Virus record (IMG/VR): IMGVR_UViG_2554235304_000010
Coordinates: 1 to 5,403 of that record
Strand: one strand, 5' to 3'
DNA: 5,403 nt
From: a virus
Lineage: Duplodnaviria > Heunggongvirae > Uroviricota > Caudoviricetes
The position numbers and the translations under genes are program-made. The notes beneath the pieces were generated by a model, which saw nothing but the letters and a program-made list of their open reading frames with translations, was not told the DNA's origin and searched no databases. Below, one piece after another: positions 2,696 to 3,187 of the stretch. The stretch's first letter is position 1. Each line of letters starts with the position of its first letter.

Positions 2696-3187
2696 ATGGA
2701 TCAAAAACAGATTGAAGAAATTGTACGCAGCGTGATGGCGTCAATGGGACAAGCGGCCCCCGCGCCGTCAGAAGCAAAATGCGCCACTACCACCTGTGCA
2801 GCACCGGTGACCTCGGAAAGCTGCGCGCTGGATTTAGGTTCCGCAGAAGCAAAAGCGTGGATTGGCGTTGAAAACCCGCATCGCGCAGACGTATTAACAG
2901 AACTGCGCCGCAGCACCGTGGCTCGCGTCTGTACCGGTCGTGCTGGTCCGCGTCCGCGTACCCAGGCGTTGCTGCGTTTCCTGGCCGATCACTCTCGTTC
3001 GAAAGACACCGTACTCAAAGAAGTGCCGGAAGAGTGGGTGAAAGCGCAGGGCTTGCTGGAAGTCCGCTCTGAAATTAGCGACAAAAATCTCTATCTGACT
3101 CGCCCGGATATGGGCCGCCGCCTGTGTGCAGAGGCTGTTGAAGCGCTGAAAGCGCAGTGTGTAACTTCGCGTTTTTTTCTGGGCTAA
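2696..3187 (+). pseudogene. eutC: Ethanolamine ammonia-lyase small (light) subunit EutC, 3'-truncated; native sequence ends near 3164 and is followed by 7 foreign codons and a stop
   Basis: GGAG at 2682-2685 precedes ATG 2696. The translation [22 protein letters not shown]...[16 protein letters not shown] matches EutC from memory up to about residue 156, then reads TSRFFLG and stops, whereas full-length EutC is about 295 aa. The N-terminal microcompartment-targeting peptide is retained; the catalytic C-terminal half is absent. Confidence 0.88.

Follow-up and report, generated by a model that had tools for sequence, protein, structure and literature searches.

The open reading frame at positions 2,696 to 3,187 of the DNA analyzed here is the front half of eutC, which has been truncated by insertion of a Mu-like prophage. 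Our analyses make it highly probable that the eutC' remnant was created by this prophage, that ISEc13 constitutes a second lesion in the same operon, that neither EutBC activity nor ethanolamine catabolism is left, and that the protein fragment is a by-product. The window, i.e., the whole stretch of 5,403 nucleotides that was analyzed, is identical to ASZS01000069.1 of assembly GCA_000442085.2 and corresponds to positions 2749427-2754829 of the chromosome of EPEC O127:H6 E2348/69 (NC_011601.1), to which it is identical save for one inverted segment. E2348/69 is the prototype EPEC strain of volunteer and mechanistic studies. From the insertion sequence to the prophage, the window contains the following features.

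Positions 1 to 66, plus strand: right end of ISEc13 (IS4/Tn5-like), which ends ...GATCTGATCAAGAGACAG; transposase stop codon at 53-55 (RefSeq, Pfam).
Positions 67 to 76, plus strand: GTCGATAAAC, the downstream copy of the target-site duplication, 10 nt of eutA (junction alignment to intact eutA).
Positions 67 to 1302, plus strand: 'eutA, 3' part of the reactivating factor gene, a pseudogene (Pfam EutA positions 105-474 of 475; PGAP "incomplete; missing N-terminus").
Positions 1314 to 2675, plus strand: eutB, large subunit, intact, 453 aa (Pfam EutB positions 1-434 of 435, E = 2.3e-206; WP_000769961.1).
Positions 2696 to 3187, plus strand: eutC' ORF of 163 codons, comprising EutC 1-156, then TSRFFLG and a stop codon from the prophage end.
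Positions 2696 to 2752, plus strand: EutC encapsulation peptide, codons 1-19 (identity to the published tag).
Positions 3156 to 3159, plus strand: AGTG, upstream copy of the flanking 4-bp direct repeat, the last host bases of eutC'.
Positions 3160 to 5403, phage genes on the minus strand: right-end portion of the Mu-like prophage; the terminus reads TGTAACTTCGCG..., and the same end is found at other loci elsewhere.

Translation of the window gives a frame that begins with ATG at 2696, ends with TAA at 3185-3187, and encodes a product of 163 aa. Over residues 1-156, this product is 100% identical to intact EutC of E. coli EC42405, which has 295 aa; the remaining seven residues (157-163, TSRFFLG) and the stop codon are read from prophage DNA and are unlike EutC. 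These data agree with the preliminary description, which had recognized a truncated eutC from the window alone. The last host base is at position 3159, and the T of codon 155 together with the whole of codon 156 belongs to the phage end (TGTA...); these phage-derived codons happen to give the wild-type Cys-Val. A functional EutC is expected to match its family over the full length, which the fragment does not do. In Pfam EutC, residues 65-156 align to model positions 2-98 of 235, and on the NCBIfam EutC equivalog NF003971 (cut-off, 230 bits), the fragment scores 122.2 bits over model positions 2-109 of 261 and intact EutC 339.5 bits. PGAP/RefSeq labels eutC' as a pseudogene, "incomplete; missing C-terminus," and its start codon and ribosome-binding site are native and undamaged. 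The 163-codon frame is an ordinary pseudogene remnant that is already flagged in the reference annotation, and a truncated eutC of this kind is not new, since it is a RefSeq pseudogene and the encapsulation peptide has been fully characterized.

The truncation results from insertion of a prophage of 35.7 kb, which splits eutC at codon 155, and not from deletion; the missing half lies intact 35.7 kb away. When the prophage and one copy of AGTG were removed in silico, a 295-aa ORF was obtained, the protein of which is identical to intact EutC. No bases have been deleted and neither eutC half has decayed through further mutations, which points to a recent simple insertion. The two eutC junctions, when aligned to intact eutC, share a 7-nt overlap (AGTGTGT) that by itself leaves the exact ends ambiguous. 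Independent insertions of the same phage fix them: the phage ends, at 97-99.6% identity, lie in mhpT, an rhs gene, hyf, ypdF, and TonB-dependent receptor genes of other E. coli genomes, as transposition predicts, and place the right end at window position 3160. The left end closes ...CTACCCCACA, and the termini are thus TG...CA. With these termini, each of the three independent insertions examined has flanking repeats of 4 bp, namely, AGTG (eutC), GAAT (mhpT in strain CFS3292), and GAAG (rhs in strain GF75). The target-site duplication of Mu is 5 bp; the 4-bp repeats set the prophage apart from Mu proper, still within the broader Mu-like group, of which unrelated insertion sites, a short target duplication, and TG...CA termini are typical. 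We note that a 5-bp, Mu-type duplication at eutC was what we expected at first; this was dropped when the termini taken from other genomes gave the 4-bp repeat.

The gene content of the prophage matches this assignment. Its transposase is of the MuA type, with Pfam matches to Mu-transpos_C (E = 1.4e-16), HTH_Tnp_Mu_1, and rve, and is encoded together with a MuB-like ATPase (AAA_22 and TniB) beside a repressor/Ner-like module (Phage_CI_repr and HTH_35, respectively) at one end; Mor is also encoded. Further genes are those for lysis, terminase, a Mu gpT-type head, tail sheath, tape measure, baseplate including Gp48, and tail fibers, and the prophage is probably complete, from repressor through tail fibers. 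Within the prophage, no integrase or excisionase is annotated. Both ends carry copies of an octamer, three of which are in the window.

Positions 3177 to 3184, plus strand: octamer TTCTGGGC, candidate transposase-binding site of the right end.
Positions 3199 to 3206, plus strand: second copy of the octamer, candidate transposase-binding site.
Positions 3227 to 3234, minus strand: third copy of the octamer, candidate transposase-binding site.

The window, in which 0.2 matches to TTCTGGGC would be expected, has no others, and all three copies sit no more than 75 bp from the right end. Another three are found in the terminal 150 bp of the left end (positions 15953-16085 of L002, an E2348/69 stretch in which 15508-16895 equals NC_011601.1 2715507-2716894 and the left-end junction repeat is at 15932-15936), and none elsewhere in 31 kb of L002. 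By analogy with Mu, these copies look like transposase end-binding sites; R3 of Mu is inverted, as is the third right-end copy here. In the sequence of events that we propose, a Mu-like transposable phage would have landed in codon 155 of eutC and duplicated 4 bp (AGTG); translation from the normal eutC start would then run 28 nt into the phage end and stop, so that an insertion in codon 155 would yield EutC 1-156 plus seven foreign residues. 'eutC and the genes eutL, eutK, and eutR would at the same time have been displaced 35.7 kb downstream, whereby transcription from the eut promoter would be lost to them.

Among the comparisons available, Mu is matched in its MuA-type transposase, MuB-like ATPase, Ner-like protein, Mor, and head/tail genes, in its termini with three end motifs each, in insertion at unrelated loci, and in a G-segment-like invertible tail-fiber cassette that adjoins the right end. 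The prophage of E2348/69 differs from Mu in that it duplicated 4 bp at each of the three sites examined, in that its invertase is a stub of 31 codons, in that the space between cassette and end is too short for a mom-like gene, and in that its repressor is CI-like.

Turning to the rest of the locus, the RefSeq gene order before the prophage is eutS-P-Q-T, pta (eutD), eutM-N-E-J-G-H, eutA', ISEc13, 'eutA, eutB, and eutC', and that after approximately 35.7 kb of phage genes is 'eutC ("missing N-terminus"), eutL, eutK, and eutR. The RefSeq pseudogenes at the locus are both eutC halves and the IS-split eutA; upstream, eutS, eutM, eutN, and eutQ are intact. An operon that runs uninterrupted through eutB was not found: eutB itself is intact and adjacent, and both eutA and eutC are split. 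In eutA, ISEc13 interrupts the gene after nt 178 (eutA' is annotated with 177 nt), and the alignment resumes at window position 67; nt 1-178 and nt 169-1404 of intact eutA both align to the E2348/69 locus. ISEc13 in eutA is a simple insertion with a 10-nt overlap and a second, independent lesion. The element is ~1.5 kb long, has the same orientation as the operon, and encodes a transposase with the Pfam domains Tnp_DNA_bind, DDE_Tnp_1, and Dimer_Tnp_Tn5; a gap of 167 nt with no annotated gene separates the end of the eutA' remnant from the transposase start. An intact eutB with an IS in the eutA gene upstream of it had also been read from the window beforehand, correctly on both counts. We also observed that the ends of ISEc13 (L001 18516-20076, an E2348/69 stretch) resemble those of Tn5/IS50, one reading CTGTCTCTTATACACAA and the other, as reverse complement, CTGTCTCTTGATCAGATCT. 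The whole window matches ~30 places per E2348/69 chromosome, and many of these are expected to be further copies of ISEc13.

To place the cut in the protein, we relied on a structural model of a homologue. AlphaFold2 in single-sequence mode gave a mean pLDDT of 38 for the 163-aa fragment, and this model was discarded as uninformative. Most EutC clusters that a search for homologues brought up were atypical, frameshifted, or partial, and none was represented by a 295-aa E. coli protein; for this reason, full-length Photorhabdus EutC was modeled instead (28-row alignment; E. coli numbering is model numbering + 11). This model has a mean pLDDT of 77.5, and its best match in the PDB is chain B of 3ABO, the E. 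coli EutC (E = 2e-36; TM 0.64/0.71). The N-terminal arm, packed on EutB in the crystal, probably accounts for the large rmsd relative to 3ABO_B. In the model, the peptide forms a helix (residues 3-14) and is followed by a disordered linker, then by an N-terminal arm that is helical and modeled with moderate confidence, and finally by a confident α/β core that starts at ~100 and contains strands at 110-116, 150-155, 189-192, 210-217, 226-233, and 246-251. The cut falls after model residue 145 (E. coli residue 156), so that only strand 110-116 (E. coli residues ~121-127) stays and five of the six strands are lost. The complete α/β core that a functional EutC has in the homologue model is, thus, missing from the fragment, and judged from secondary structure, with strand pairing inferred, the cut appears to lie inside the α/β core rather than at a domain border.

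These observations modify two statements made earlier about the fragment. It was said to keep the targeting signal and the linker and to lose the C-terminal domain; signal and linker are indeed kept and 139 of the 295 residues of EutC are gone, but in the AlphaFold model the cut does not follow a domain border. Likewise, the fragment was said to lack the "catalytic half." The C-terminal core is missing, but the term is a loose one: in the 3ABO-series E. coli structures, the active site reportedly lies in the EutB barrel, and EutC is said to close over the cobalamin at the EutB interface.

The N-terminal targeting signal is well documented. A tag of EutC residues 1-19 sends EGFP and beta-galactosidase to Eut compartments (PMC3299773), and a fusion of E. 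coli EutC1-20 to GFP forms puncta once the operon is induced (PMC11334477). Salmonella lacking EutC residues 2-19 has its EutB released into the cytosol and cannot grow on ethanolamine; EutC1-20 binds the N-terminal domain of EutQ via I6, V10, V13, and M14 (PMC12487888). Residues 1-19 of the fragment are letter-identical to the S. enterica LT2 EutC1-19 tag of PMC3299773, as had been proposed for its first ~20 residues, and all four EutQ-contact residues (I6, V10, V13, and M14) are kept. By sequence, the fragment thus has an encapsulation peptide of the EutC type, i.e., ~18-20 N-terminal residues that suffice for targeting. The expected succession of helix and linker is found in the Photorhabdus EutC homologue model (helix 3-14, followed by low pLDDT at 14-30), and the linker columns are poorly conserved in the EutC alignment; the fragment's own single-sequence model has a helix at 3-16 with low confidence. 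Compared with the characterized EutC1-19 and EutC1-20 of Salmonella and E. coli, the same 19 residues and the same hydrophobic face are present. However, the characterized peptides were carried by complete EutC or a folded reporter with the whole operon expressed, whereas the peptide of E2348/69 heads a truncated protein in an operon broken at two places. That the peptide survives follows simply from its N-terminal position in a gene that the phage interrupted midway, and nothing suggests that the fragment is kept for a function.

The insertion was seen in one lineage only. Among 5,426 complete E. coli genomes, both eutC::prophage junctions were found in just 4, all E2348/69 or O127:H6, and in those four each eutC half is single-copy per chromosome. 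At least 24 further public contigs encode the exact 163-aa product, and all 10 of them that were fetched and compared have a 100% identical junction. An assembly artefact was considered and ruled out by the identical junctions in many independent assemblies. A tblastn search with the missing half of EutC against 72,556 plasmids found no eutC on ordinary E. coli plasmids; E. coli matches were limited to four records that, at 1.4-4.9 Mb, have the size of chromosomes. A second, intact eutC, the finding named beforehand as one that would overturn the loss of function, was accordingly not found in these chromosomes or on ordinary plasmids. In K-12-type eutC alleles, we noticed two other short forms, i.e., P0013, a 153-aa EutC ending ...EALKA that represents a cluster of 184 members and occurs in public assemblies, and P0012, in which EutC 1-153 continues into the C-terminal part of a periplasmic sugar-binding protein. 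From their sequences, P0012 and P0013 suggest another recurrent eutC breakpoint three codons upstream of the one in E2348/69.

The closest analogue of this arrangement is the cryptic prophage CPZ-55 in the eut operon of K-12. In both cases, a prophage near eutA/eutB/eutC parts the distal genes from the promoter (eutBCLKR in K-12 and 'eutC-LKR in E2348/69). In K-12 BW25113, which has its prophage between eutA and eutB, ethanolamine use is lost as fully as on deletion of eut, and scarless removal of the prophage restores growth (PMC11334477); the K-12 site has been called a prophage insertion hot spot (PMC6652756). The two cases differ in that CPZ-55 is an integrase-type cryptic prophage at a recurrent, intergenic site (eutA/eutB), whereas that of E2348/69 is a Mu-type transposable phage inside the eutC coding sequence, where it creates a chimeric truncated ORF at a site seen in one lineage only (4/5426), and in that E2348/69 has the second lesion, ISEc13 in eutA. 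Arguing in part from this analogy, we strongly infer that the E2348/69 lineage would form no EutBC holoenzyme and would not catabolize ethanolamine. Our literature search found nothing on ethanolamine growth of E2348/69, its eut pseudogenes, the Mu-like prophage, or an eutC' transcript or protein.

As for expression of the fragment, ISEc13 upstream is likely polar on eutB-eutC'. Some read-through expression of eutB-eutC' is possible, because no convincing terminator came up between ISEc13 and eutC' in a pattern scan, ISEc13 is co-oriented with the operon, and the ribosome-binding site is native. In scans for promoters and terminators around both junctions, counts were no higher than in shuffled sequence and speak neither for nor against read-through. 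Carrying only part of an α/β domain, as predicted from the homologue model, and ending in hydrophobic foreign residues, the fragment is likely unstable and, if made at all, most likely a low-abundance, poorly folded by-product. Autoinduction of eutR via the operon promoter would be broken as well.

The alternative that survives best holds that the fragment is made and is targeted via its peptide to Eut shells or EutQ as an inactive decoy, and that it might drag EutB along via the N-terminal arm. This would fit with a peptide identical to the functional tag, with the ability of EutC1-20 alone to bind EutQ and to target GFP, with the intact ribosome-binding site and start codon of eutC', with intact eutS, eutM, eutN, and eutQ genes upstream, and with the lack of a strong terminator between the IS and eutC' in the pattern scan. 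We nevertheless consider it unlikely. ISEc13, with its ~1.5 kb, precedes eutB-eutC', and a similarly placed prophage makes K-12 Eut-negative; autoinduction of eutR through the operon transcript is broken; the α/β core is incomplete, with one of six strands; and the single-sequence model of the fragment lends no structural support, as noted above. Moreover, EutL is needed for the association of shell and cargo, which separate without EutL (PMC12487888), and eutL and eutK are cut from the operon promoter in E2348/69.

A more elaborate reading is that the eut locus of E2348/69 has turned from catabolism to a pure sensor/scaffold, with eutR, eutL, and eutK expressed constitutively in lysogens by read-through from the prophage repressor gene and EutC(1-156), if made, occupying EutQ or the shell as noncatalytic cargo. 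In the stretch around the left phage end (NC_011601.1 2715507-2716894), the CI-like repressor gene is transcribed across that end toward 'eutC-eutL-eutK-eutR, and a pattern scan identified no clear terminator between it and these genes, so that lysogens might express eutL, eutK, and eutR by prophage read-through. If this reading were true, ethanolamine would not be consumed and would remain available as a signal through which EutR regulates virulence, as has been described for EHEC. We regard the conversion to a sensor/scaffold as very unlikely.

Two further alternatives have next to no probability in our judgment. In the first, the insertion is a reversible switch, i.e., precise excision of the prophage restores eutC, which would make the prophage an on/off element for ethanolamine use (active lysogeny). 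Removal of the prophage with one repeat does leave a perfect ORF, and the prophage looks complete. On the other hand, induction of Mu-type phages leads to replication by transposition rather than to excision, and precise excision is very rare among them; no integrase/excisionase is annotated; and all assemblies examined carry the insertion. Excision alone would in any case not restore the pathway, since eutA is independently broken by ISEc13. In the second, equally improbable, lyase activity comes from elsewhere (a second eutC or the product of the split gene) and the truncation has no phenotype: 'eutC is undamaged and could receive transcripts from the prophage repressor gene, which points the same way, but each eutC half is single-copy with none on a plasmid, 'eutC has no start codon or ribosome-binding site of its own at the junction, eutA is disrupted too, and complementation between fragments is unlikely given that the cut, judged from secondary structure only, apparently lies inside the α/β core.

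The loss of EutBC through prophage and IS, with the fragment as a by-product, thus remains the reading that we favor. It matters for work on ethanolamine, be it as nutrient or as signal, in EPEC in that eut of E2348/69 is broken twice, with eutC split by a prophage and eutLKR uncoupled from the operon promoter. Beyond such strain bookkeeping, eutC' matters little, and the retained peptide gives no new insight into microcompartment targeting.

The segment that is inverted relative to the reference chromosome forms part of an invertible cassette next to the phage end, which is accompanied by the remains of an invertase gene.

Positions 3432 to 5352, no strand assigned: invertible tail-fiber cassette of ~1.9 kb, with inverted repeats of 19 bp as its borders (3432-3450 and 5334-5352).
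Positions 3278 to 3370, minus strand: serine invertase gene stub of 31 codons, MFIGYVRASTNDQDTDLQRNALNCAGYELIF* (PGAP partial pseudogene).

The cassette holds two alternative fiber C-termini and two tail-fiber assembly genes (Pfam Caudo_TAP and Gp53-like_C), and its inverted repeats differ at one base. Positions 3451-5333 of the window are inverted relative to NC_011601.1 with 100% identity, and this orientation is opposite to that in all four complete genomes of the E2348/69 lineage. Among public assemblies of the lineage, four have the orientation of the window and four that of the reference; of those examined besides the window and the complete genomes, three have the former and two the latter. 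Two sibling 5403-bp contigs from two related assemblies differ only in the orientation of the cassette. The occurrence of both orientations supports that the cassette flips, as does the G segment of Mu. The crossover-site sequence TTCATAAACGTTGGTTTGGGAGAA resembles gix/cix/pix sites. The invertase stub, which ends ~120 bp from the phage terminus, we take to be of the Gin/Pin/Hin type from a conserved N-terminal motif recognized by eye; other E. coli genomes with the phage share this stub at 99.6% identity. Because the cassette flips and its own invertase is only a stub of 31 codons, inversion must be catalyzed in trans by another invertase in the genome; Gin, Pin, and Cin are known to cross-complement.
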